Source: an uncultured Gammaproteobacteria bacterium | GTDB lineage: Bacteria > Patescibacteriota > Patescibacteriia > Patescibacteriales > UBA12465 | Assembly (NCBI GenBank): GCA_964355275.1 | Contig: CAYHCB010000006.1 | Span: forward strand, 9,745 to 73,744 | Length of the DNA: 64,000 nt | Direction of reading: 5' to 3' | Notes under the pieces: model-generated | What the model saw: only the letters and a program-made list of their open reading frames with translations | Databases searched by the model: none | Told to the model about the DNA's origin: nothing | Part shown: positions 14,028 through 48,769 of the stretch, piece by piece | Position numbering within the stretch: position 1 is the first letter of the stretch | Layout of the letters: each line of letters begins with the position of its first letter | Position numbers and translations under genes: made by a program

Positions 14028-14111
14028 GCCCGAGTGTCGGAACTGGTAGACGAACACGATTCAAAATCGTGCGGCCGAGAGGCCATGCGGGTTCGATTCC
14101 CGCCTTGGGCA
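14028..14111 (+). tRNA. tRNA-Leu (anticodon CAA), class II with long variable arm; CCA not encoded
   Basis: Hand-folded cloverleaf. Acceptor GCCCGAG/CTTGGGC, anticodon stem CACGA/TCGTG with loop TTCAAAA, variable arm CGGCCGAGAGGCCAT, T-arm GCGGG-TTCGATT-CCCGC. Confidence 0.9.
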
Positions 14112-14178
14112 CTTTTTAAAATTAAGAAACTTAGTAACAATCTTGATTATATTGTTGTGATGGTTATTTCCACTGAAG

Positions 14179-21790: not shown

Positions 21791-22167
21791 TTAGCAGGGC
21801 AAGCTGTAAGCCGGATTCTGTCCATTAGAGTAAACTCTAATAGGATGATCATTTATCTGGTCCTACTGTTACCAATAGGATCTGGCGGACCACTTTTTTT
21901 CTTATTCAATTGAATAAGAATTTGTCCTTGCTCCAGGCAGGGTTTACCGCGAATCTAGCGTCACCGCTAGTCGAAAAAAGTAGCCAAACAAGTTGACACC
22001 CCCTTTCTTTTCACCTTTCGTTTCAGCAAGCTGAAACTAGTATAGTCTCTGTGGCACTTTCCCTAAGGTTACCCTTGGTGGACGTTATCCACTGCCCTTT
22101 TTGATGGAGTCCGGACTTTCCTCTTCATAATTATAAAAATTATAAAGCGATCATCCGCTTACCCTAA
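21791..22167 (-). ncRNA. rnpB: RNase P RNA (bacterial type A-like)
   Basis: Minus strand carries GAGGAAAGUCCGGACUCC, GGUAAACCCUGCCUGGAGCAAGG and ACAGAAUCCGGCUUA. Ends pair as P1 (UUAGGGUAAGC with GCUUGCCC..UAA). Confidence 0.85.
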
Positions 22168-26978: not shown

Positions 26979-29144
26979 TTATTGCGCCATACTACTAGAA
27001 GAAGCGGCTGGTTTTTGAGCGTTAATCATAGAGGCTTGGAATAAAGCCGAATTAGCATTAATTTCGTCGCCCATTTGTTTATAAACTTCCGCTAAAAATA
27101 ACCAAGCTTGCTCGTTACTAGATTGAAAAACAACTAATTGTTTAGCCATAATAAGCGCGTGCGTCCAATCTTTTCCTTTATAATAATAATCTAAAAGAGT
27201 TAAGAAGTCTTTAGACATCCCTAAAGTAACAGCTCCTTTTAAATCAATGCATTTATCGGCATTTAAATAAGCATTTTTAGTATCCTTATTTAAATTATAA
27301 ACTCGATACAACTGACAATAAATATCCGGAAATTCAGGATTAAATTCAATCGTTTGGTTAATTACTGAAATAGCTTCAGGATACTTCTCCTTAGCCACTA
27401 GAAGGTTAGCCTTAAAGAAATAAACTGGAATACGCTCTGGGCTAGCACCAATAGATTTATCCACGGCTACAAGAGCATTATTATAATAAGTATCTAAAAC
27501 ATTCTCATCACTAAGTTTAAGACTAAAAGCAATCGCATTTATTTGGGCTACTTGTAATTGCATTAAACTATCTTGAGGATTATTAGAAACATTATCGTCT
27601 GCCAAAGAAATAACGTAATCAGCTACTTCTTTGCCCTGTTCAACCGGTAAACTTAAAATTATTCTCGGTTCAGAAATAACTGAATTAACTAAAGCATTTT
27701 TGCCATCACGATCAAGTGGGGTGTTATTTTTAAAGGCTTCTTTGTAAAGTGCCATACCCTCCATAATCTGCCCCTCAGATAATCGCGCATAGCTATTTAT
27801 TACCCCCTGGAAGGTCTGCCAAGGCCTGATATTAAAATAGTTGCTTAGTATTAGAACTAAGATAAAACCGACGATAAGAGCGGTAAATTCGGGCATCTTT
27901 TTCTCAGTCTCCTTAAGCTCAATAACAGGGTTTACTAAATAATAAATATAAGCCAAAGAAACCATTAAACCGATATAAGTAACCAGTGAATCAAAAACGG
28001 CTAAATTTTGAATGAAGTAAGCGGTAAACAGACCAATTAAAATTATTGGCTCGAAATTATGACGATCATTTTTAAGTAAACGAAGTAAATAAATAGCCAC
28101 CGCCACAAAAATACTAAGATAAGCCAAGAGCCCCACTAAACCAGTGGTTGAAGCAATGTCAATTAAATTATTATGAGCCCGATCAAAATAAGTATCACCT
28201 AAAGAATAGTTGTAAAACTTGGCATCAAAGTAACGATCAAAAACAATAGCGTAATTTCCAAAACCCACCCCTAGCCAAGGATGATTATGGAAATCTTTAC
28301 CAGCTGCCTGCCAACTAATTAAACGAGTCTGGAAGGTTGATTTTTGAGAGGTTAAATTTCTTAAAAATGAATTTTGAAACCAAGCAGTATTTTGTTGAGA
28401 AAAAATTAAAACTAAAGCGACAATCGCTACCACCAAAGAACCCCAAGCGGCAATTTTTATTTTTTTACTTTGATGCATTACTCCAATCAAGAAAACAATA
28501 AGTAATACACTGATTCCTAAACCAATAATAGCCCCCGAGGTGCGAGTTTTAGCAAACTCAAACAACATGATAATCACTGGAACAAATAAGAGCCAACGCC
28601 AACTCTCTTTTTTAGCTCTAAAAAATAGTAGAGCACAAAAATATAAATTGAAAATAATATAACCACTGACATAGGCAGTATTACCAATTGTGCTATAAGC
28701 AATACCTGCTAAGCCTTTAATACTAACTAAAGTAGCAATGATTACTGAGGTAAGGAGTAAAATTTGCCAATCTTTATAAGACCTAAAAACTGTAATTAAA
28801 ACTAGATATAAAAAGAAAAAGTGAATTATATGAAAAACACCCAACATTCTTTCAGCGTCACCCCAAAAACTGATAACTGGATCGACGCTAACAAAACAAG
28901 ATAAAATAATTGCTCCTAAAAAAGAAATAAGGCCCCAAGTTATTAATGACTTTTTTGGTCTATAGGTCGGAAACTTCCAAATAAAAATTGCCCAAATTAA
29001 AAGCAAAAATTCAGTTAGCACATTAAAGCTAAGTTGCTTAGAGGTGATGTAAGGAAATAATAAATCCGAAAAAACAAAAAAAACAGTCATTAGCGAAGCC
29101 ACAACTCCTAACTGAAGAATTCTAAGATAAAATTTTGAAGTCAT
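26979..29144 (-). CDS. O-antigen ligase/O-oligosaccharyltransferase-like (Wzy_C) polytopic membrane protein with C-terminal TPR domain
   Basis: About 12 TM helices with a large loop region in Wzy_C-like layout. C-terminal ~300 aa has TPR-like repeats (YPEAISVINQTIEFNPEFPDIYCQLYRVY...). Confidence 0.7.
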   Translation of the reverse strand: MTSKFYLRILQLGVVASLMTVFFVFSDLLFPYITSKQLSFNVLTEFLLLIWAIFIWKFPTYRPKKSLITWGLISFLGAIILSCFVSVDPVISFWGDAERMLGVFHIIHFFFLYLVLITVFRSYKDWQILLLTSVIIATLVSIKGLAGIAYSTIGNTAYVSGYIIFNLYFCALLFFRAKKESWRWLLFVPVIIMLFEFAKTRTSGAIIGLGISVLLIVFLIGVMHQSKKIKIAAWGSLVVAIVALVLIFSQQNTAWFQNSFLRNLTSQKSTFQTRLISWQAAGKDFHNHPWLGVGFGNYAIVFDRYFDAKFYNYSLGDTYFDRAHNNLIDIASTTGLVGLLAYLSIFVAVAIYLLRLLKNDRHNFEPIILIGLFTAYFIQNLAVFDSLVTYIGLMVSLAYIYYLVNPVIELKETEKKMPEFTALIVGFILVLILSNYFNIRPWQTFQGVINSYARLSEGQIMEGMALYKEAFKNNTPLDRDGKNALVNSVISEPRIILSLPVEQGKEVADYVISLADDNVSNNPQDSLMQLQVAQINAIAFSLKLSDENVLDTYYNNALVAVDKSIGASPERIPVYFFKANLLVAKEKYPEAISVINQTIEFNPEFPDIYCQLYRVYNLNKDTKNAYLNADKCIDLKGAVTLGMSKDFLTLLDYYYKGKDWTHALIMAKQLVVFQSSNEQAWLFLAEVYKQMGDEINANSALFQASMINAQKPAASSSSMAQ

Positions 29145-29236
29145 AATAGTAAAAGATTATAAAGTGTAGGACTAATTAAATACTGGATATATTTTAGCAT
29201 TAGTTTAGAAAAAAGCAAAAAATAAAGTAAAAACAA

Positions 29237-29260
29237 AAAGAGCCCCCGAAGGGGCTCTTT
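29237..29260 (-). terminator. Strong intrinsic terminator after the S-layer-like gene
   Basis: 10-bp stem AAAGAGCCCC/GGGGCTCTTT. Loop reads UUCG on the minus strand, followed by TTGTTTTTAC. Confidence 0.7.
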
Positions 29261-29291
29261 TGTAAACACTGGATCAATAAACTAAATAATA

Positions 29292-32200
29292 TTAGTTAAT
29301 TGACATAGTTTGAGTGTCAGATGGTAAACCATTGACTCTGTAACTATTAAACCAGTAATTGTTTGCATCAGTGTTAGAAGCACTATCAGTCCATGTTAAT
29401 GAAGTGAAAGCAGGTGTTAACAAGGTACCAGCAGCATAAGCAGCTTCTGCTATGCTTGTGCTTACAGATTCACGGTTACTACCAGTAACAGTTGTTACAA
29501 GGATAACTTCAAAAGTCTTTGAAGTACCAGCAGCAACAATTTCTGGAGTAGTTGTACCGAAATCAACAAAGATTTGGGTAGCGGAAGTAGTAGAAGTAAC
29601 AGCTTTAGCTACACCATTAACCTTAATAGCGTTAGAAGTGGTAGCTAATGTTACGCTAGCTGTCTTGGTGTAATCCAAGGCAATTCTACTAACTTTTACA
29701 TCAGCATTAGAATCTGCAGTTACAGTGAATTTAGCAACTACGGAATTACCACTAGTTAAAGTAGTATTAGGTAATGCAAGTAAAGCAACTGTAGGAACAG
29801 TTTTTCTAATACGGAATTCGTTAGCAACTACAGATAAACCTGTAGTGTAAGTTAAATCACTATTTGAAGATTTAAACTTAACACTGTTAACTTGAAGTTT
29901 TAAGTAAGCATTGGTAGCGCTTTCGTCGTTATCAATGTTATTTAAAACAGCTTTAATTGTTAACTTCTTAGATCCATCAGCAGGAACAACGATAGCATTG
30001 TTATTAATAACAAACTTAGCCTCTCCATTGAAAGGAGTTACTGTATCGATCGCAGTTGAATTTCCTTCTACATATAATTTGTAAGAAGAAATTCTAGGAT
30101 CGGTAGTAGTAATAGTAGATGTACCAGTAGTACTAGCATTAACAACTGTTAATTCAGTTACATTAGCACTATCATTTGTAGCAACTAACTTAAATTGAGC
30201 AACTGATTGTTCAACTGAAGGTTTAGAAGCTAAAATAGCGCTTACTGGAGAATCACCATCCTTAGTAATACCTAAAGTACCAGCACCTACAACAGTAAAT
30301 TTAGCTGTTACTGGGGTACCAGAAACAGAAACTGTTTTACCACGAGAATCTTCAGCAGTAAATGTTGAAAGCATTTTAATAGAACCAGTAGCGGCAGTAT
30401 CAATAGATCCTTTAAGTTCGATTGTCTTAGTTTGGTTATCAGCTACAGAAATAGATAATGAAGAGAAGGTGGCGCCGGTTGTACCAAAATCTTTAGTAGA
30501 ACCAACTTGTACGCCGTCCATATATAACTTCATATCATAAATACTAGAAGCTAAAACAGTATTGTTAGTTGTTGAAGCGATATCAATTTGAGTGATTTTT
30601 ACAGTGTCATTTGTAGCTTTAACTGTAAATTTACCTAAAGAAATATCAGATGTACCAATAACAACATTCTTATCAGAATAACCATCGCTGCGGATTGCTG
30701 ACAAAGCAGCACCAGAAACAGTGATGCTAGCACCAGTAGCGGTACCAGTTATATCACCTTCAGCAACAGCATTTTGAGATAATACGTATTCTGGAGTATC
30801 TAATAAGTGAGAACTCTTGTTCAAACTTGCTTTAAATACAGCGGAAGTAGTAGTAGCATTTGATTTTACATCAACAGTAACCTTAATTTCATTGTCCCCC
30901 TTGTTTAAAGAAAGAGTTGATGAAAGAGTTGTGGTAGCTGCAGCTGTAATAGGGTCATAAGAATCAAGTAAAGCGCCGTTAACGTAAACCTTTACGTTTT
31001 CAAAAGCGTCTACATTTGAGAAATCAGTATTAATTCTCAAACCATCAGCTACGATAGCCTCATCAGCCTTTACATTAGCTAATAAAGCAACAACGGCCTT
31101 GGTTCCTTTGATAACTGTAACATCAGAAGGAGATGTGGATTTCTTAGAAACAGAAACTACGCCTGATTTGATAGTTAAGTTAGCAACTTGAACTAAAGAT
31201 GCATCTTGCACTTTAACACCAAAACCATTTGTAAGTTCATTACCATTAAAATCTTCAATCTTATTTAATGATAGAACTACATTGTTACTTGTTGCAGTGT
31301 TTTCTTTAGCAATAACATCACCTTTAATAGCAAAAATCTGGTCACCATCATCTTTTAACATGGTTAAACCACCATTACTAAAGGTAAAAGTAATATATTT
31401 ACCAGAAATAGCTGCAGTAGCTACTTTTTTACCATTATTTTCAAGATAGGCATTCATGATAACTTTAGCTAAATCTTCATCACCAGAATTTTTAAACATA
31501 GCGCTCTTTAGAACGATATCTCTAGTGTTTGAAGCAAAATTAACAGTAAATTTACCTAATTGAACGTTCTCGTCACCGACATTAACGTTTACAGCAGCGC
31601 CTCCTTCATCTAATAAAACTTCAGTAACGGAATAATCTGTTGGGGACATTAAATTTCCATTAATAGGGAAAGAACCGGAGATAGCGGCAGCAGTAGCACT
31701 AACTGCAGAAGCAGAAGCGATACTTAAACCAATATTACCAGAACCTGTATTAGTGGATGGGAAAGAAGCGATTAAATCTAAAGTAACTGTTTGACCAGCA
31801 CCAACTGTTAGGGCTGGAGAGAAAGTCAAAATAGATTCATCATTGGAATTCATAGACTTCTTAGAAGCTACGATAGTACCATTTTGTTCTGCCCAAACTT
31901 TATCAATGTTAGTGTAAGCGGAAAGACCAATTCTTTTAACAGTAATAGAGTTAATAGTAACAGCACCATCATTAGCGGCAGTTAAGTTAACTTTAGCCAT
32001 TGGGATGCGAGCACCATTTTTTGGAACAGAAGCGCCAGCTGGAGTAGCAGCACTTAAAGAAGCTGTTAAACCAGAACCGGTCACAATAGGACCTGTACCA
32101 CCTACTTGAGCATCATAGTTTAAACTTTCAGCGCCTGTAACAGCATTTCCAGAAGCTGTAATAGTGTTGGAAATAGTGATTACATTAGCGAAGTTAAATC

Positions 32201-32783
32201 TATTTGCATTGAAAGCAGCTTCGTTAGCAATTGAACGATAGTTAGCGCCATCATATAAATAGACAGCACCTGAACCGGCATTCTTTACTAAAGTACCTGC
32301 AGGGATTTGACCATTAGCTAAAGCTGTACCAATAGTGTAGTTAGTAAAGAAAGCATCAGAAACATCGATAACTCTCTTTGCCCAATTTGCACCAAAGATA
32401 GCAATAGCATCAGCCTCACTAGAAATCTTTCTTAAAACACCGTTGGCTTCAACAGCGTAAACAGAAGGATCAGTTGTGATTTTAACTAATTTTGTACCAG
32501 GTCTTACCACAACGTTAGCTCCTAATGGATAAGATGCTAATTCTGAAGCAGAAATAGTAACTACACCACTAAAATCATTGTGCCAAGAGAAGAATACAGA
32601 TTCACTAGGGAAAACATATCTCTTTCCATCGTTGCCTAAGAAATAAACAGCTGATAAGCCGTCCATTTTAATGAGATCACCAGCTTGAGGAGCAGCTGCA
32701 TTGGCAAAAGAACCAATACCAGTCATTCCTAATACTGTTAATGTCATTACGCCGATGGTTAAGAATTTGCGTAAATTTTTCAT
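29292..32783 (-). CDS. Giant secreted surface (S-layer-like) protein with repeated beta-sandwich-type modules
   Basis: Start moved to ATG 32783 (MKNLRKF... classical signal peptide ending ANA/AAP). T/S/A/V/N-rich. At least 5 recurrences of a (G/A)KFTV.A.ND...V....I module signature. Confidence 0.7.
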   Translation of the reverse strand: MKNLRKFLTIGVMTLTVLGMTGIGSFANAAAPQAGDLIKMDGLSAVYFLGNDGKRYVFPSESVFFSWHNDFSGVVTISASELASYPLGANVVVRPGTKLVKITTDPSVYAVEANGVLRKISSEADAIAIFGANWAKRVIDVSDAFFTNYTIGTALANGQIPAGTLVKNAGSGAVYLYDGANYRSIANEAAFNANRFNFANVITISNTITASGNAVTGAESLNYDAQVGGTGPIVTGSGLTASLSAATPAGASVPKNGARIPMAKVNLTAANDGAVTINSITVKRIGLSAYTNIDKVWAEQNGTIVASKKSMNSNDESILTFSPALTVGAGQTVTLDLIASFPSTNTGSGNIGLSIASASAVSATAAAISGSFPINGNLMSPTDYSVTEVLLDEGGAAVNVNVGDENVQLGKFTVNFASNTRDIVLKSAMFKNSGDEDLAKVIMNAYLENNGKKVATAAISGKYITFTFSNGGLTMLKDDGDQIFAIKGDVIAKENTATSNNVVLSLNKIEDFNGNELTNGFGVKVQDASLVQVANLTIKSGVVSVSKKSTSPSDVTVIKGTKAVVALLANVKADEAIVADGLRINTDFSNVDAFENVKVYVNGALLDSYDPITAAATTTLSSTLSLNKGDNEIKVTVDVKSNATTTSAVFKASLNKSSHLLDTPEYVLSQNAVAEGDITGTATGASITVSGAALSAIRSDGYSDKNVVIGTSDISLGKFTVKATNDTVKITQIDIASTTNNTVLASSIYDMKLYMDGVQVGSTKDFGTTGATFSSLSISVADNQTKTIELKGSIDTAATGSIKMLSTFTAEDSRGKTVSVSGTPVTAKFTVVGAGTLGITKDGDSPVSAILASKPSVEQSVAQFKLVATNDSANVTELTVVNASTTGTSTITTTDPRISSYKLYVEGNSTAIDTVTPFNGEAKFVINNNAIVVPADGSKKLTIKAVLNNIDNDESATNAYLKLQVNSVKFKSSNSDLTYTTGLSVVANEFRIRKTVPTVALLALPNTTLTSGNSVVAKFTVTADSNADVKVSRIALDYTKTASVTLATTSNAIKVNGVAKAVTSTTSATQIFVDFGTTTPEIVAAGTSKTFEVILVTTVTGSNRESVSTSIAEAAYAAGTLLTPAFTSLTWTDSASNTDANNYWFNSYRVNGLPSDTQTMSIN

Positions 32784-33120
32784 ATTTGTAATTAAGGATT
32801 CGAAAGTTGAATGTCCAAACAATTTTAGTCTGAACAATTCCTCTCTCGATATTTATTCGGTTTAAGCTACCATCTGAAAGATAGACCATTTAGGTACATC
32901 AATCGGAATCCCGCTTCCCTAATCGCGCTAGAATTGCGGACTAGTGAAAAGCTAAATCGATGTACACTTGGATATCTCACGATTTAAGCTTATCCCCGAA
33001 TTTTTTTTGTTTTTAATAGAGCGAAACCAATCCTTTGCAGGACCCGACCCTTTACGGGGTTTCACTGATCGCATTTAGCAAGCTAAACGCAGATCTGTTA
33101 ATTTATCTCACACCGTTTCA
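32784..33120 (-). promoter_or_regulatory. Long structured 5' leader (and possible promoter) of the S-layer-like gene
   Basis: 360-nt non-coding gap, GC-richer than other spacers. Several helices whose G-U pairs exist only on the minus strand. TGAAAC hexamer at 33115-33120 (minus). Confidence 0.45.
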
Positions 33121-33199
33121 CCAAATTAGATGATATTAATCTTCCAGAAAAGGGTGTCGAGATAAGAGATAAACTAACAGCTCGGCGCTTTGGCCTTTG

Positions 33200-33943
33200 T
33201 TACTTAATTAAATCATTTACTTCTTTTAATTTATCAAGAGCTTCAGTATATTTCTTTTCATCAAACAAAGTTTTTGCTTCTTCTAAAATTTTAGTTGTAG
33301 TAGAGGTAGTGGCGACAACAACTTCATTATTAACTTCAGTGCCTGCTAAAGAAACACCGGTCTCATCTTTCTTTAAAGTGGCGCTAAAAACTTCTGTACT
33401 GCCAGTAGCTGAACCGACTGTAGAAATTTCTTGTACAACTGGTTTTTCTAATCTAGCCACACTCTTTCGGACAGTCTTCATTTCTTTTTCAAACTTAACA
33501 TTTAGGGCCGCAATTTCCTCTTTATTGTCAAAACTTGGATCAGCTAAAACAGTGGTTATATCCTGAGCATTACTAGCCGCAAATTGTCCGGCCATTTTGT
33601 CTCGATCATCGGAATTAAAAATAGTAGTTAATTTTGCTTGTTCAGAGATTTCCCGAGCGATATATAATGATTGGTTAGGTTTAGTCTTAGCTAAAAGTAA
33701 ATGGCCGTAAGCGCTGGAAGTAACCACAAATAACATTAAAGAGGCTAAGGCAATAGCTGGAGCAGAGGCAGTTTTTAAAGCGCTCTGAAAATTGATAAAA
33801 AAAGATGACCAGGCCGACGAATTTGTCGCTCCGGAGTTAGAAATTTGGGTAAATAAAGAATCCCGATTAGCTTTTAACCAGCTAGTATCGGGTTTGATTT
33901 CTCTAAGATTACCTAATTTTTTGATAAGATCACGGTCAGTCAT
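33200..33943 (-). CDS. Membrane-anchored anti-sigma-like protein (DUF5667-like, tentative)
   Basis: Downstream of the ECF sigma. Short cytoplasmic N-terminus, one TM (PAIALASLMLFVVTSSAY), extracytoplasmic helical/T-rich domain. Confidence 0.5.
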   Translation of the reverse strand: MTDRDLIKKLGNLREIKPDTSWLKANRDSLFTQISNSGATNSSAWSSFFINFQSALKTASAPAIALASLMLFVVTSSAYGHLLLAKTKPNQSLYIAREISEQAKLTTIFNSDDRDKMAGQFAASNAQDITTVLADPSFDNKEEIAALNVKFEKEMKTVRKSVARLEKPVVQEISTVGSATGSTEVFSATLKKDETGVSLAGTEVNNEVVVATTSTTTKILEEAKTLFDEKKYTEALDKLKEVNDLIK

Positions 33944-34031
33944 AAAATTATGTATTATTACGCTTTAATATACGTAATAAAAGAAAAAACGTTACAGTTG
34001 GCAACGTCTTCTCTTTTTTCTATTTGTTCTA

Positions 34032-34613
34032 TTAATTTTTTTGATCTTCTTCGATTAAGTCTTTAAGCGCGGCTAGTGAACGATGCAGTAAAACCCGAAT
34101 ATTACCCTTAGTTTTACCAGTTACTTCACTAATTTCATCAATATTTAAATCATTTACGAACTTTAAAACAATTACCTCGCGGTATTCTTCCTTAAGTAAA
34201 GGTAATTTGCTCTTTATTCTATTTAAATCAGCATTTCGGTCCATATCAGCCTCTAAATCTTTGCCTTCATCAGCAATATCTATCGGATGAGCTTCATCAT
34301 CTAAAGAAATTTCTAATTTATTACCAGTTTCCCGATAATAATCAACTATCGAGGTGCGTGCTATTTTATATAAAAGAGCTCTTAAAGTACTACTACTAGT
34401 TAAGCTATTATTTTGGATATGATTCCAAGTTTTTAAAAATATCATGGAAGTCAAATCTTTAGCTTCCTCAGACTCACCAACCTTAAAATAAACAAAACGA
34501 TAGATATCGCCGGCAAAATCATCGTAAACCTTAATAAAAGCATCCTTGTCTTTATTTTTAAGACGACTTAAGGTTTGTTTGTCTTTAAATTTCTTAACCA
34601 GTGGTAATGACAT
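34032..34613 (-). CDS. ECF-type sigma-70 family RNA polymerase sigma factor
   Basis: 193 aa; region 2 (DLTSMIFLKTWNHI, ALLYKIARTSIVDYYR) and region 4 (YREVIVLKFVNDLNIDEISEVTGKTKGNIRVLLHRSL). Confidence 0.85.
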   Translation of the reverse strand: MSLPLVKKFKDKQTLSRLKNKDKDAFIKVYDDFAGDIYRFVYFKVGESEEAKDLTSMIFLKTWNHIQNNSLTSSSTLRALLYKIARTSIVDYYRETGNKLEISLDDEAHPIDIADEGKDLEADMDRNADLNRIKSKLPLLKEEYREVIVLKFVNDLNIDEISEVTGKTKGNIRVLLHRSLAALKDLIEEDQKN

Positions 34614-34979
34614 CGGGTATTTAAATGTTTAAATTTTTTAATAAAAAATAAGGAAATTCACTATTTCCCTGCTATATTTTACTTTATTTGTGTCAAAATT
34701 CTAGCATAAGAAGTGATAAATAGCAAGAAAAGCCTAATCTTAAATTGTTTTTTTTTATCTCTTTATTATACGCTAAAAATATAAAAACTCTTCACTTCAA
34801 AATTAATAATACAAAACTCTTCGCTTGTTGATTTGGATATAGTTTTTAACATATACTCCTAGATTACCAGAAAGCGCAATATGTGCTGGCGCATTACCTG
34901 GCCATCTTGACTTTTAAATATAAAAGATTAACAATAAAAATACTTTAGTCTATGATATAATGGACTTAAATATTATTCT

Positions 34980-35216
34980 ATGTTAGAAGAAAAAGAAATT
35001 ATCTCACCGCTATGGTTTTCGGTTTCCTCTTCAGCTAAATTAGGTGGCGTTGATCCTAAGACTATTCGTCGTGCCATTAAAAATAATCCTGACTTAAAAT
35101 ATAAAATAGTAAAAGATCGTTATAAAATTGAACTTGGATCTCTGCTCTCTTTTTTAAATAAAAAAACCAAACTAAAAAACAAATTAAATAAAAATGGACT
35201 AGGACAATATCTATAA
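34980..35216 (+). CDS. Small putative DNA-binding (HTH) protein
   Basis: 78 aa; SAKLGGVDPKTIRRAIK resembles an HTH. TGATATAAT about 20 nt upstream; terminator follows. Confidence 0.4.
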   Translation: MLEEKEIISPLWFSVSSSAKLGGVDPKTIRRAIKNNPDLKYKIVKDRYKIELGSLLSFLNKKTKLKNKLNKNGLGQYL

Positions 35217-37823: not shown

Positions 37824-38013
37824 AGCTGTAACAATTTTACTTAATTTACGTATGCTATTTATAAAAGTATATTTAAAACATTAAATAAATCATCACCTTT
37901 CGGGAATTTTTTACCTTATTTTAGATAAACAGTTCCCGGAAGGGCGATAGTCATAAGGCTAATCACGAACTAGGATTGGTCCCCTAGTTTCCCCTTCTTT
38001 AAACAATAAATAT

Positions 38014-38163
38014 ATGTTTAGAGAAATCCTGGGATTCTTACTTGTTCTAGTAATCGTGAAATTTGCCCTCCCACAAGAGATTGGTGGCCTGGTAACGGAA
38101 ATTTTACTTAAAATTTTAACTTTAGTAAAAGATGCCGTCAACCAAGTTGGCCCTTCTCTTTAA
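38014..38163 (+). CDS. Candidate 49-aa small hydrophobic protein (below track cutoff)
   Basis: ATG..TAA translating to MFREILGFLLVLVIVKFALPQEIGGLVTEILLKILTLVKDAVNQVGPSL. Stops 7 nt before a strong terminator. No SD. Confidence 0.3.
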   Translation: MFREILGFLLVLVIVKFALPQEIGGLVTEILLKILTLVKDAVNQVGPSL

Positions 38164-41702: not shown

Positions 41703-42518
41703 CTAATCTTCTAAAGGTGGCGGCGGCAATAAATCACAAGGTCTATCTTTATTATCTTTATTCTTTTCACAATTTCTAGGCACCCCCTCTGGTCGTGGTC
41801 GTTTAAAAAATCCGCGACCTGGGCCAACTGCTAAAATTTCTTTAACCAAAAATTTATGATCACCAGTTTTTTCTCCCATTAACATAACGGGATAACCAAC
41901 AACCATTTTTTCATCATCGTCATCACTAGAAAGTAAAGTTAACCAATCCTCTCCAGCACGATCAATTAGATGATACTCCAGGGGGCTAGGCTGAGAAATA
42001 ACTAAACCAGATAAACGACCACCTTCTGGATTAGCCCAATAATTAAGTCTAGGATTAATAACTTTATCATATAAAGGAGCTCGTTCTCCTAAAATATCAT
42101 CAATTACGCGATCAAGTCCAAAAGCATTAAGTATCCCGCCAAAAATTAAACTAACCGCAATAATTACTAAAATAACTTTGGCAGTAGAATATTTATAACC
42201 CTTTTTAGTATGTTTTACATAGTAATAAACTAATACAGCAAAAACAGCTAAACAAATTATCCAAAAGAATGGAATTATAAATAATAAAGCTTCCAAAAGA
42301 TTGCCACCGGCACGACCGTAAACACCAGCATCTTCACTCCTTATCATAAAAAAAATAAGCGAAGTAGAAATTGCCCCTAGAGCCAAAGAAAAAATACCCA
42401 AAAACCAAATAAAGGAGTTCTTTAAAAGAAACTGCCATTTTGGTTTCGGCGATATTTTTAATTCTTTAATTTTGTGCAAAAAATTTTCGCCAAAATTTTT
42501 ATCTTCTAAATTGCTCAT
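41703..42518 (-). CDS. Polytopic membrane protein, candidate anti-sigma partner
   Basis: ATGA overlap with the upstream ECF sigma gene. Three TMs. C-terminal domain ending PRNCEKNKDNKDRPCDLLPPPPLED. Confidence 0.5.
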   Translation of the reverse strand: MSNLEDKNFGENFLHKIKELKISPKPKWQFLLKNSFIWFLGIFSLALGAISTSLIFFMIRSEDAGVYGRAGGNLLEALLFIIPFFWIICLAVFAVLVYYYVKHTKKGYKYSTAKVILVIIAVSLIFGGILNAFGLDRVIDDILGERAPLYDKVINPRLNYWANPEGGRLSGLVISQPSPLEYHLIDRAGEDWLTLLSSDDDDEKMVVGYPVMLMGEKTGDHKFLVKEILAVGPGRGFFKRPRPEGVPRNCEKNKDNKDRPCDLLPPPPLED

Positions 42519-43099
42519 ATTTTAATTTGTTGTTTAATTAGCTCCCGTTTAAATTCACTTTTAGCTTTATTCATTAAAGATCCAACAGTACCAATTGGTT
42601 TCTTTATAATATCAGAAATTTCTTGATAGTTTTTTTCTTCTAAAAACTTTAAAACTAAAACTTCTCGATATTTTTCTGCTAAAGAATATAAAATTTTAGC
42701 GACTTTATCTTTTAAGTAAAGATTATCTATTTCATTTTCAATATTAAAGTTAAACATTATTTTACTGGCACTATCATCTTCTAGAGTAATGCTGTGTCCT
42801 TCCGCCCGAGCATTTAAACGACGATGTTGGCTTATTACCTGATTTCTCGCGACCGCATAAATCCAAGATGAGAATTTTAAATCAGTATCAAAATCATTTA
42901 GATTTAAATAAACTTTTAAAAATACGTCTTGTAATAAATCCTCAGCATCTTCATCTCTTACATTAGTTATCCGTCTAATATAATTAAAAAGTTTTGTCTT
43001 ATAACGATTAATAATTAACACAAAATTATCCTGATTTTCCAGGGCTAATTTTACTATTTCTTCGTCGCTAAGTTGTTCTGTCACCTCTGGATTAATCAT
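42515..43099 (-). CDS. ECF-type sigma-70 family sigma factor
   Basis: Region 2 (DLLQDVFLKVYLNL, SWIYAVARNQVISQHRR) and region 4 (YREVLVLKFLEEKNYQEISDIIKKPIGTVGSLMNKA). Confidence 0.85.
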   Translation of the reverse strand: MINPEVTEQLSDEEIVKLALENQDNFVLIINRYKTKLFNYIRRITNVRDEDAEDLLQDVFLKVYLNLNDFDTDLKFSSWIYAVARNQVISQHRRLNARAEGHSITLEDDSASKIMFNFNIENEIDNLYLKDKVAKILYSLAEKYREVLVLKFLEEKNYQEISDIIKKPIGTVGSLMNKAKSEFKRELIKQQIKI

Positions 43100-47156: not shown

Positions 47157-47265
47157 ACTTAAAACATTATTTCTACTCTAAATATTACCTTGACTTACTT
47201 TAATATGCAATCTCTTTAAAAAGTGTAACAAATACAATATTTTTACGTATTATTATATGTAAAAT

Positions 47266-47433
47266 ATGAAAAAGATGCAGAGCTTACAACCCATGTGGTC
47301 AAATTTACAAGCCTTATATAAGGACTGTTTTGCTTATGGTATCGTCACTGACCACCGAGCTGATTGGGCTTTAGCTATGTATTATCAACAACCAGAAAAA
47401 AGTTTAAAGACTATTCGGAGGAATCCCGGATAG
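47266..47433 (+). CDS. Candidate 55-aa small protein (below track cutoff), or part of a cis-regulatory leader
   Basis: ATG..TAG ORF MKKMQSLQPMWSNLQALYKDCFAYGIVTDHRADWALAMYYQQPEKSLKTIRRNPG. GC-richer than flanks. Terminator 27 nt downstream. Confidence 0.3.
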   Translation: MKKMQSLQPMWSNLQALYKDCFAYGIVTDHRADWALAMYYQQPEKSLKTIRRNPG

Positions 47434-47460
47434 GAACAAAAAAAATGTTGCTAACAAGTT

Positions 47461-47497
47461 AAATCCCTCGGCTCAATTCGATCCGAGGGATTTTTTT
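47461..47497 (+). terminator. Intrinsic terminator 55 nt upstream of the MFS gene
   Basis: 11-bp stem AAATCCCTCGG/CCGAGGGATTT followed by 7 T. Confidence 0.7.
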
Positions 47498-47551: not shown

Positions 47552-48769
47552 ATGAAAACACTAAACATTAACCCAATTATTGCGACTTATCTGCTATTTA
47601 ACGGCTTATTTTCGTTCGCCATCTCCTGCTCATTTGTCACCTATGTACCATTTCTTGCAGAAAAAGGAATGAATCTGTGGCAAATAAATCTGATTAATGC
47701 TTCCTTCATGTGCTCTATTGTCCTGGCGGAAATGCCTACTGGTAGCTTCGCTGATCGTTTTGGCAGACATCATAGTCTGGCAATTAGTTGTTTTTTACTA
47801 GCGGCTAGTTTTCTAGTTTACTATTTATCTAACTCCTTCTATTTATTCATTTTAGCCGAATTAATTGGCGCCATTGGCCAAACATTTTCCTCTGGAGCAG
47901 CCGAAGCTTGGTTAGTTGATTCTTTAAAAAAAAGAGACGAACAACACTTAGAAGATAAAGCTTTTAGACAGGAGGCGGTCAGCAAACCAATCGGAACGAT
48001 TGTTGGTTGTCTGTTGGGTGGTGCTTTAGGAGGTGTAGACTTAAGTATTCCCTGGTTAATGTCGGCTTTATTTATCTTTATTACTGGCCTCTTAGCTTTC
48101 TTTTTTATTAAAGAAAATTATGCGACAGAAATGGTCGCTAATCGGAAAAATAGTTTAAGTAAACAAATAAATGAGGCTTGGCATTACGGCGTTAAAAATA
48201 AAGAATTACTCTATATTATGGGATTCGGCTCTTTAATCGCTTTTTCTATCCAAGCACTTAACATGCAATGGACCCTACTATTTAAAGACAATTACAATTT
48301 TAGTTCTTTAGAACTAGGATACTTATTTGTCGGCATTTCACTAACCGCTGCCTTAGGCGGATTATTCTCTAAACTCCTTAAAAAATGGTTTAAAAACGAA
48401 AAATTAGCCATTGTTATCCCCCAGCTTATCACCGCCTTAGCGATTATCATTTGCTCTCAGGTAAGCGGCTTATTCCTAGCTATAAGTGCTTTTTTATTAC
48501 ATGAGTTTGGGCGCGGTATTTTTAGCCCGCTTAAACAAAGCTATGTGAATAAACGCTTAGTTTCTGATAAACGAGCTACCCTTCTATCCCTAGAATCTAT
48601 GTTTATTAAATTAGGCGCTTTCTCGGGATTACTGGCCAGCGGTTTTCTAGCCGAAAACTATTCAATTAGCTGGACCTGGTTATTTTCTGGAGTATCTCTG
48701 GCGGTTGGCACTATTATTTTTATAATAAACACCAAAAAAACAGCCCCCGTCGAGATAAGGTCTGATTAA
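47552..48769 (+). CDS. MFS transporter
   Basis: 12 TM; loop 2-3 motif GSFADRFGRH. Confidence 0.85.
   Translation: MKTLNINPIIATYLLFNGLFSFAISCSFVTYVPFLAEKGMNLWQINLINASFMCSIVLAEMPTGSFADRFGRHHSLAISCFLLAASFLVYYLSNSFYLFILAELIGAIGQTFSSGAAEAWLVDSLKKRDEQHLEDKAFRQEAVSKPIGTIVGCLLGGALGGVDLSIPWLMSALFIFITGLLAFFFIKENYATEMVANRKNSLSKQINEAWHYGVKNKELLYIMGFGSLIAFSIQALNMQWTLLFKDNYNFSSLELGYLFVGISLTAALGGLFSKLLKKWFKNEKLAIVIPQLITALAIIICSQVSGLFLAISAFLLHEFGRGIFSPLKQSYVNKRLVSDKRATLLSLESMFIKLGAFSGLLASGFLAENYSISWTWLFSGVSLAVGTIIFIINTKKTAPVEIRSD

Follow-up and report, generated by a model that had tools for sequence, protein, structure and literature searches.

A conserved module of an ECF-type sigma factor, a DUF5667-like membrane protein, a structured leader RNA and a surface-protein gene in Falkowbacteria-like bacteria

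In the stretch of Patescibacteria DNA analyzed here (contig CAYHCB010000006.1; 64,000 nucleotides (nt), hereafter the window), four elements follow one another on the minus strand: a gene for a sigma factor of the extracytoplasmic function (ECF) type, a gene for a single-pass membrane protein distantly related to the DUF5667 family, a large structured leader RNA, and a gene for a surface protein. The set is conserved in Falkowbacteria-like bacteria of the candidate phyla radiation (CPR/Patescibacteria), and we consider it fairly probable that it works as an envelope module in which the sigma factor reads a promoter just downstream of its own gene, the membrane protein restrains the sigma factor, and the resulting transcript runs through the leader into the surface-protein gene. 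CPR bacteria are uncultured, with tiny genomes and few regulators, and the control of their transcription is almost uncharted; searches of the literature for DUF5667, for ECF factors in Parcubacteria, for anti-sigma factors in Patescibacteria and for surface layers (S-layers) in Falkowbacteria returned nothing relevant. A preliminary description of this DNA had placed an ECF-type promoter directly in front of the surface-protein gene. A real promoter of this type does exist within the module, at a different place.

Relatives of the module were collected with two independent seeds. An alignment of the membrane protein, scanned against one genome per species, gave 78 loci (L001-L078), all Falkowbacteria-like save one from Magasanikbacteria; counts on 79 genome sequences refer to these loci plus the window. 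The conserved core of the leader RNA, searched in metagenomes, gave 120 matches (L079-L198), 30 of which were set aside as chance occurrences in unrelated, mostly higher-GC DNA, leaving 90 loci and bringing the total from both seeds to about 170. The order of sigma gene, membrane-protein gene, leader and surface gene, first remarked in the window, is conserved in every one of these loci whose flanks suffice. Among the 78 loci found through the membrane protein, a sigma gene lies upstream in 76 and a surface gene downstream in 70, the exceptions being mostly contig ends; among the 90 found through the leader, and again with sufficient flank, the surface gene is downstream in 72 of 72, the membrane-protein gene upstream in 43 of 43 and the sigma gene upstream in 29 of 29. 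The gap between the sigma and membrane-protein genes has a median of 56 nt, and in some clades the two genes overlap; some 10 species carry 1-2 kb of accessory genes, on either strand, in this gap. This gap is a recurrent insertion site (L011, L012, L023, L031, L033, L037, L052, L066, L067), where the inserted genes, named by sequence motifs alone without a library scan, look like Fic, DUF3800, NYN, AbiE-type toxin-antitoxin (abortive infection) and AAA-ATPase genes. The gap between the membrane-protein and surface genes has a median length of 500 nt and reaches 400 nt or more in 69 of 70 loci. In one clade (L013, L019, L021, L057-L059, L066, L070, L071, L076) a gene of about 265 codons stands between the membrane-protein gene and the leader, and the motif LDIACGSGYG in its product suggests a methyltransferase dependent on S-adenosylmethionine; two species (L014, L063) have a HicAB-like pair in the same place. 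All open reading frames (ORFs) of at least 80 codons found there are co-directional with the module.

The sigma gene is present as first described, and its product is genuinely of the ECF type. Pfam recognizes Sigma70_r2 (residues 30-96) and Sigma70_r4_2 (residues 132-183) and nothing else, regions 3 and 1.1 are absent from the 193-residue protein, which is the domain composition that defines ECF (group 4) factors, and the model TIGR02937 scores 76.1 bits against a cut-off of 42.9. Narrower models are not passed: the best specific NCBIfam model, TIGR02952 for the BldN family, reaches 118.9 bits (cut-off 206.45), the SigW models TIGR02948 and PRK09641 reach 65.9 and 66.4 bits (cut-offs 243 and 209), and the SigX model about 66 bits (cut-off above 200). 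Because it falls below the curated cut-offs on both sides, the protein is a member neither of the Bacillus SigW/SigX group nor of the BldN family, and by its sequence it is an ECF-type sigma factor outside every curated subfamily. The closest solved chains are those of ECF sigma factors, 6dxo_A and SigW (5wuq_A); the record 6dxo is labelled 'ECF-subfamily sigma factor', and the BldN-RsbN structure is a different entry, 6C03.

To judge from the region upstream of it, the sigma gene itself is read from a housekeeping-type promoter. The strict pattern TTGCTT-17-TRTGnTAnnAT occurs 5' of the sigma gene in 46 of 76 loci and further loci have a 16-nt spacer; a promoter of this kind precedes the gene in nearly all loci. 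Upstream of the sigma gene in the main clade, no ECF-type promoter was found. In the 5' untranslated region (UTR) of most loci examined, folded one sequence at a time, a hairpin is followed by a T-run, and its stems vary in a compensatory manner among clades (CGGG/CCCG, AGGG/CCCT, CAGG/CCTG). RNAalifold predicted no pairs in this 5' UTR, because the short stems are misaligned, and the fold of the window's own sequence is by itself unremarkable (z = -1.1). The hairpin could be an attenuator, or a translation signal where Shine-Dalgarno sequences are absent.

The ECF-type promoter lies between the sigma gene and the membrane-protein gene, 25 nt ahead of the ATG of the latter in the window. When the spacers are set side by side, a near-invariant TGTAAC(R)TTTT...N...CGTATA(Y)TA appears immediately 5' of the membrane-protein ATG, its -35 box often overlapping the sigma stop codon. 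The strict pattern was found directly 5' of the membrane-protein gene in 73 of the 79 genome sequences, and exact TGTAAC-N16-CGTAT occurs three times in the window, against 0.01 expected. The motif matches, T-tract included, the Bacillus ECF promoter form tGAAACnTTTt...CGTA (PMC5758882). Where accessory genes have been inserted after the sigma gene, it remains with the membrane-protein gene. In four genome loci the sigma and membrane-protein genes overlap by 11 nt and the motif is absent there; TGTAAT-N16-CGTATA sits 5' of the sigma gene instead, in the classic autoregulated layout. Both arrangements recur in the metagenome loci, with the motif 5' of the membrane-protein gene in 42 of 47 and 5' of the sigma gene in 5 of 47, three of these five having, by eye, CGTAAT as the -10 box. 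An AAC-type -35 box with a CGT-type -10 box is adjacent to or upstream of the sigma gene, at its own operon, in all informative loci, and the distribution of the motif makes it very probable that the sigma factor studied here reads TGTAAC-N16-CGTATA. The -10 box ends 9 nt ahead of the ATG in 43 of the 73 motif-bearing genome sequences, a distance that would leave little or no 5' leader on the message; a leaderless membrane-protein transcript is probable in most species.

The spacer between the two genes in the window measures exactly 88 nt, as had been noted, and the hairpin in it, at first called weak, has a stem of 16 base pairs (bp), the whole spacer folding at -24.7 kcal/mol (z = -6.5). 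Its 3' arm overlaps the -35 box and the T-tract of the ECF promoter. The arms are complementary, by eye, in L001-L003 too; the spacer of most loci is 32 nt long and has no such hairpin. In the window's subclade the hairpin may end the sigma transcript. The same subclade, and no other, has an 8-bp inverted repeat, UAUUACGU...GCGUAAUA, across the ECF -10 box (33979-33956, minus strand), which stems from a 17-nt insertion between that box and the ATG.

The membrane-protein gene was also confirmed, its 247-residue product having a single pass and being positioned like an anti-sigma factor. The hydrophobicity peak (a 19-residue window from about residue 56) falls in the single predicted long helix, residues 61-83, and leaves a short cytoplasmic segment of about 55 residues. 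The AlphaFold2 model is all-helical and of low confidence (mean predicted local distance difference test score, pLDDT, of 60), with short helices at residues 4-11, 20-35 and 45-56, the long helix, a three-helix region at 92-165 and, after residue 165, a disordered linker followed by a C-terminal helical pair. Sixty homologues were found, one of them labelled Candidatus Falkowbacteria. The window protein has no Pfam family match of its own: against PF18915 (DUF5667) it scores 12.3 bits (E = 0.24; gathering cut-off 27 bits). Nineteen of 27 aligned homologues match PF18915 at E up to 1, the best at E = 1.3e-7, and one distant homologue has a precomputed match to the family. Conserved columns are concentrated in the N-terminal 37 residues (consensus MTDRDLIKKLGNLKEIKPDxSWLKANRDSLYTQISNS), where 11 of the 27 invariant columns are found; a further conserved block, KPNQSLYIAREISE, follows the predicted transmembrane helix. 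The protein has no cysteine, and the N-terminal domain of some 85 residues, often with an HxxxCxxC motif, that marks class I anti-sigma factors (zf-HC2, of the RsiW/RseA/ChrR type) is not recognizable in it; no anti-sigma model of Pfam or NCBIfam matches any of the 27 homologues. Its genomic context nevertheless suggests that it is probably the anti-sigma factor of the adjacent sigma.

The stop codon of the membrane-protein gene abuts the leader, as had been stated, the first helix beginning about 10 nt past it. The 416-nt leader is far more stable than its shuffled versions (minimum free energy z = -7.25), and measured on 25 species its 127 pairs are 91.4% paired, against 35-46% when the partners are slid by 1-3 columns; both partners have changed in 61 pairs, as opposed to about 30 in the slid controls, and none of 500 shuffles reaches the observed values. 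Many of the pairs are G-U, which identifies the gene strand as the transcribed one. Orthologous leaders share sequence blocks: the 25-mer GGGAAGCGGGATTCCGATTGATGTA is present in 69 of 70 loci, and other invariant blocks include AGCGGGATTCCGA. Across L001-L078 and the 90 loci retained from L079-L198 the leader measures 416-530 nt and has about 18 helices, and no copy was found outside the interval between the membrane-protein and surface genes; four of the 78 genome loci are without a clear hairpin-1 leader. An internal domain, GCAACACGCGC...CUGGCAGAACUU, occurs in most relatives and is absent from the window's subclade. The arms of the basal helix P1 are 84% complementary, and its 14 inner base pairs are nearly invariant, to a degree that pairing alone does not explain. 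Covariation at the very base of P1 implies that transcripts begin upstream of this helix. Rfam gave no match at the gathering score in the window, and at E up to 10 nothing credible for the leaders of the window or of L010. The leader is a large RNA motif without prior report, conserved across the whole candidate class.

The preliminary description had seen in the leader region an ECF promoter for the surface gene, with the hexamer TGAAAC as its -35 box and a GAGATAA inverted repeat bracketing it. The hexamer is indeed there, on the correct strand and with ACAGAT 16 nt further on, and so are the GAGATAA/TTATCTC units. As a -35 box it is ruled out by its chance frequency and lack of conservation: the window holds 25 copies against 37.6 expected, one of them (33064..33059) 56 nt downstream of the first; it is absent from the closest relatives, L001, the nearest of them, reading TGGCTGGGCGG in its place; no CGT-type -10 box follows; and it falls in the variable apical part of P1. 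The inverted repeat is real and much larger than was thought, with 25-nt arms, and what was taken to bracket a promoter is the inner part of P1, an RNA helix with compensatory changes. None of 70 membrane-to-surface gene regions holds an ECF-type motif within two mismatches, the single match, in L076, being non-ECF. A promoter of this design for the surface gene is thus extremely improbable, and ECF control of the surface protein appears plausible only through co-transcription from the promoter before the membrane-protein gene.

Other promoter candidates in and near the leader were rejected as well. The 25-mer GGGAAGCGGGATTCCGATTGATGTA sits between covarying helices; TCGACA-16-TAATAT (33160-33133), a possible housekeeping promoter within the leader, is not conserved; TGnTAGTTT, a promoter-like resemblance in the 5' arm of P1, drops its TG in step with a compensating substitution in the opposite arm; and for TTAACA, in that 3' arm, a conserved -10 box is lacking. 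Inside the 3' end of the membrane-protein gene, DNA conservation tracks the peptide DKLKEV and is missing wherever the leader is preceded by a methyltransferase or HicAB gene.

The surface-protein gene begins at an ATG (32783), and translation from there reproduces the NCBI protein record exactly. Cysteine is absent from the mature protein, which has a pI of 5.1 and consists to 60% of A, T, S, V, N and G; a second hydrophobic segment is lacking, and neither a relative in Pfam, NCBIfam or PDB nor an SLH or other known domain was found. Its N-terminal part, to about residue 490, aligns in nearly all loci. By these features it looks like an S-layer protein, and it is probably the main cell-surface protein. 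A Shine-Dalgarno sequence is not recognizable for this gene or for the other two of the module (32784-32800, 33944-33960 and 34614-34630, minus strand). A strong intrinsic terminator stands 31 nt past the stop codon, and the scan that detected it found no site in 32600-35000. A looser search found terminator-like hairpins within 150 nt past the surface-gene stop in 33 of 53 loci, at a density about 8 times that between the membrane-protein and surface-gene starts. Directly after the surface gene and its terminator lies the gene for a 721-residue membrane protein with a Wzy_C (O-antigen-ligase) domain and TPR repeats (26979-29261, minus strand), which has its own terminator at 26961-26930; to go by its domains, this protein may take part in modifying surface glycans or the surface layer.

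Taken together, these data suggest the following scheme. The sigma factor would be made from the housekeeping-type extended -10 promoter and would read the ECF promoter immediately downstream of its own gene, driving expression of the DUF5667-like single-pass protein, and this protein would tether the sigma factor at the membrane in anti-sigma fashion through its conserved N-terminal ~55 residues. The ECF transcript would continue through the 416-nt RNA into the gene for the 1163-residue surface protein. An envelope signal, sensed by the outer DUF5667 domain, would free the sigma factor, which would then raise the level of its anti-sigma factor (a negative feedback), of the surface protein and of at least two small units preceded by the same motif (at 37827 and 47224), while the structured RNA would probably determine how stable the surface-protein part of the message is, or how it is processed or translated. 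With no terminator in the scan and no other conserved promoter ahead of the one after the surface gene, read-through into the surface gene is most likely, and we lean, by a modest margin of belief, towards its co-transcription from the ECF promoter.

Several points weigh against this scheme. The transcription start site and the read-through are both deduced from sequence. An abundant surface protein usually has a strong promoter of its own, and S-layer genes in general have strong dedicated promoters and long 5' UTRs. The sigma gene lacks a terminator before the ECF promoter in most loci, so housekeeping-driven read-through could feed the operon too. Weak hairpin/T-run sites were also picked up by the looser search between the membrane-protein and surface-gene starts, in 35 of 67 loci, mostly within coding sequence or RNA helices. 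A rather unlikely alternative, and the one most deserving of attention, is that the surface gene has a promoter of its own, probably a housekeeping one, at or inside the leader, the ECF promoter serving the membrane protein and the small units; the sigma pair and the surface gene would then be neighbours by descent or by a loose functional association. The methyltransferase gene or HicAB pair that splits the membrane-protein gene from the leader in about 10 species would fit such an arrangement, as would the near-invariance of the inner P1 pairs, and a weak -10 box could go unnoticed in the A/T-rich 10-40 nt before P1; a weakly conserved promoter could still lie near the leader. Against it, inspection of the sequence upstream of P1 after a membrane-protein, methyltransferase or HicAB gene revealed no conserved, promoter-like motif in any of the three contexts, and no positionally conserved housekeeping-type promoter was found in the leaders, the strict pattern occurring in 7 of 68 and at scattered positions. 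In about 20 loci TGnTAGTTT becomes the TA form with a compensating change in the 3' arm, from which it follows that pairing, and not promoter function, constrains the 5' arm of P1. In the window the membrane-protein gene is not followed by a terminator, and since the base of P1 covaries, the transcript has to start further upstream.

The role of the membrane protein and the identity of the sigma factor that reads the motif are to be weighed in the same way. The membrane protein has no recognizable anti-sigma domain in Pfam or NCBIfam, profile searches of PDB sequences with it found no anti-sigma factor, its cytoplasmic segment is short, and its N-terminus is modelled at a pLDDT of about 50-60. 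It might instead be an envelope anchoring, assembly or sensing factor within the regulon, with the sigma factor controlled otherwise, for example through the conserved terminator-like hairpin of its 5' UTR; the accessory genes that can part the sigma and membrane-protein genes would agree with this. We regard this as unlikely, since the two genes adjoin in almost every locus and overlap by 11 nt in some clades, the cytoplasmic N-terminus is dense in conserved columns, anti-sigma genes are usually controlled by their own sigma factor, and one helix can suffice for binding, as in RsbN (PMC6101532). It is more doubtful still that the motif is read by another ECF sigma factor, such as the second one encoded in the window (43099..42515). 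This factor has a similar -10 box upstream of it, in TTGAAG-N16-CGTATT, for which reason cross-recognition between the two is possible. The motif tracks the sigma/membrane-protein pair in both of its arrangements, the -35 region of the second factor, TTGAAG, has no AAC, and the two proteins are 22% identical; on our inference, the difference between the -35 regions is what assigns TGTAAC-N16-CGTATA to the sigma factor of the module.

The two further exact copies of the motif each precede a short reading frame on the plus strand (Table 1). The first is followed by a 49-residue membrane protein beginning MFREILGFLLVLVIV..., and the same pairing of promoter and protein occurs in eight other loci; the 160-nt leader of this frame has complementary segments, CCTTTCGGGAA and TTCCCGGAAGG. 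The second precedes a 55-codon frame, after which a terminator-like hairpin with a T-run (AAATCCCTCGG...CCGAGGGATTTTTTT) lies at about 47463-47497. Similar sites with short frames about 20 nt downstream, encoding a common ITCDR-like peptide, occur in L014, L016 and L018. By its layout, the unit of about 240 nt at 47224-47497 could be a small protein or a sigma-dependent small RNA; it stands just ahead of a gene for a transporter of the major facilitator superfamily (47552-48769). The second sigma gene overlaps by 4 nt the gene for a 271-residue multi-pass membrane protein (the pair spans 41703-43099, minus strand), and a profile comparison of this partner with the DUF5667-like protein gave a resemblance of eight residues, I-x-P-x-x-x-W, which is not significant.

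Table 1. Features of the window, with coordinates counted from its first letter
Feature	Coordinates	Strand	Basis or remark
ECF-type sigma factor gene, 193 aa	34613..34032	-	Pfam Sigma70_r2 + Sigma70_r4_2
Housekeeping-type promoter of the sigma gene, TTGCTA-17-TAGAAT, TG just upstream (extended -10), predicted	34726..34698	-	promoter scan
Short hairpin AGGGAAAT/ATTTCCTT with U-run, sigma 5' UTR	34670..34641	-	terminator/attenuator-like
16-bp hairpin in the sigma/membrane-protein spacer	34016..33980	-	repeat search and folding
ECF-type promoter TGTAAC (33996..33991), 16-nt T-rich spacer, CGTATA (33974..33969)	33996..33969	-	conserved motif
Single-pass membrane protein gene, 247 aa, distant DUF5667 relative	33943..33200	-	probable anti-sigma factor
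Structured leader RNA, 416 nt	33199..32784	-	folding and covariation
Leader helix P1	33190-33166 and 33109-33085	-	25-nt arms
TGAAAC hexamer	33120..33115	-	not a functional element
Conserved leader core GGGAAGCGGGATTCCGATTGATGTA	32919..32895	-	25-mer
Last leader hairpin	~32849..32800	-	
Surface protein gene, 1163 aa including signal peptide	32783..29292	-	S-layer-like
Strong intrinsic terminator, 11-bp stem with 6 G-C pairs, then T-run	29261..29236	-	terminator scan
Second exact ECF promoter site	37827..37853	+	160 nt before 49-aa membrane-protein ORF 38014..38163
Third exact ECF promoter site	47224..47250	+	15 nt before 55-aa ORF 47266..47433
Second ECF-type sigma factor gene, 194 aa	43099..42515	-	22% identical to the first
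RNase P RNA, class A	21791-22166	-	252 bits
tRNA-Leu(CAA) gene	14028-14112	+	

What the module offers is a sigma factor together with its likely promoter TGTAAC-N16-CGTATA, a small regulon that is conserved, and DUF5667 as a candidate anti-sigma family, the whole set being tied to the gene of the probable main cell-surface protein; with the promoter motif, regulons can be predicted straight away in hundreds of assembled genomes. A bolder reading, which we offer as speculation and think improbable in its entirety, is that of a self-contained cell-surface homeostat. The outer DUF5667 domain would monitor the surface layer or its unassembled subunits, the sigma factor would transcribe its anti-sigma factor and the surface protein as one message, and the 416-nt RNA would represent a new class of cis-regulator that uncouples the two outputs, by binding a ligand or a protein or as a processing or stability switch; DUF5667 would then be a widespread class of anti-sigma factors in Patescibacteria.

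Known systems share individual aspects of this arrangement. The order of a sigma gene, a membrane-regulator gene and a target envelope gene in a row is that of FecI/FecR-fecA, and the module has the same linear order. The Fec system has a sigma-dependent promoter between regulator and target, whereas no such promoter is found there in the module, nor are FecR or TonB-receptor domains. Long, stably folded 5' UTRs precede the S-layer genes slpA of Lactobacillus and Thermus and are thought to stabilize the message or to allow translational control. The leader described here, at 416-530 nt with about 18 helices and invariant blocks across the candidate class, is much larger than these; unlike them it probably lies within an operon transcript and not at its 5' end, and it has no Rfam family. 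In Bacillus subtilis, sigmaW/RsiW and sigmaX likewise consist of a two-domain sigma factor with a single-pass membrane partner encoded alongside, and their promoters (TGAAAC-N16-CGTA; tGtAAC...CGaC) share with the motif of the module the AAC, the T-tract, the 16-nt spacer and CGTA (PMC5758882). The sigma factor of the window differs in scoring far below the equivalog cut-offs (66 against 243 bits), even though SigW (5wuq) is still among its nearest chains; its partner lacks the zinc-binding anti-sigma domain, and the ECF promoter lies mostly between the sigma and partner genes, the sigma gene having a housekeeping-type promoter. The closest layout is that of sigmaBldN/RsbN in Streptomyces, where the gene for RsbN, a single-pass membrane anti-sigma factor without similarity to other anti-sigma factors, has its own BldN-dependent promoter, separate from that of the sigma gene, and where the BldN regulon encodes secreted surface-coating proteins of the chaplin/rodlin sheath (PMC6101532). 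The module resembles it in the separate ECF promoter of the partner gene, and the best specific NCBIfam model for the sigma factor is that of the BldN family. At 119 bits against a cut-off of 206 the sigma factor is not a member of that family, and the partner has no homology to RsbN, its cytoplasmic segment being about 55 residues long as opposed to 117 in RsbN; the surface gene belongs to the same module, behind a large structured RNA, and the host is a CPR bacterium and not an actinomycete. The pairing of a sigma and an anti-sigma factor is, as such, an ordinary kind of system. What is new is the candidate DUF5667 anti-sigma family, the placement of the promoter between the sigma gene and its partner, the motif and regulon in an uncultured CPR lineage, and the large structured RNA within the module.

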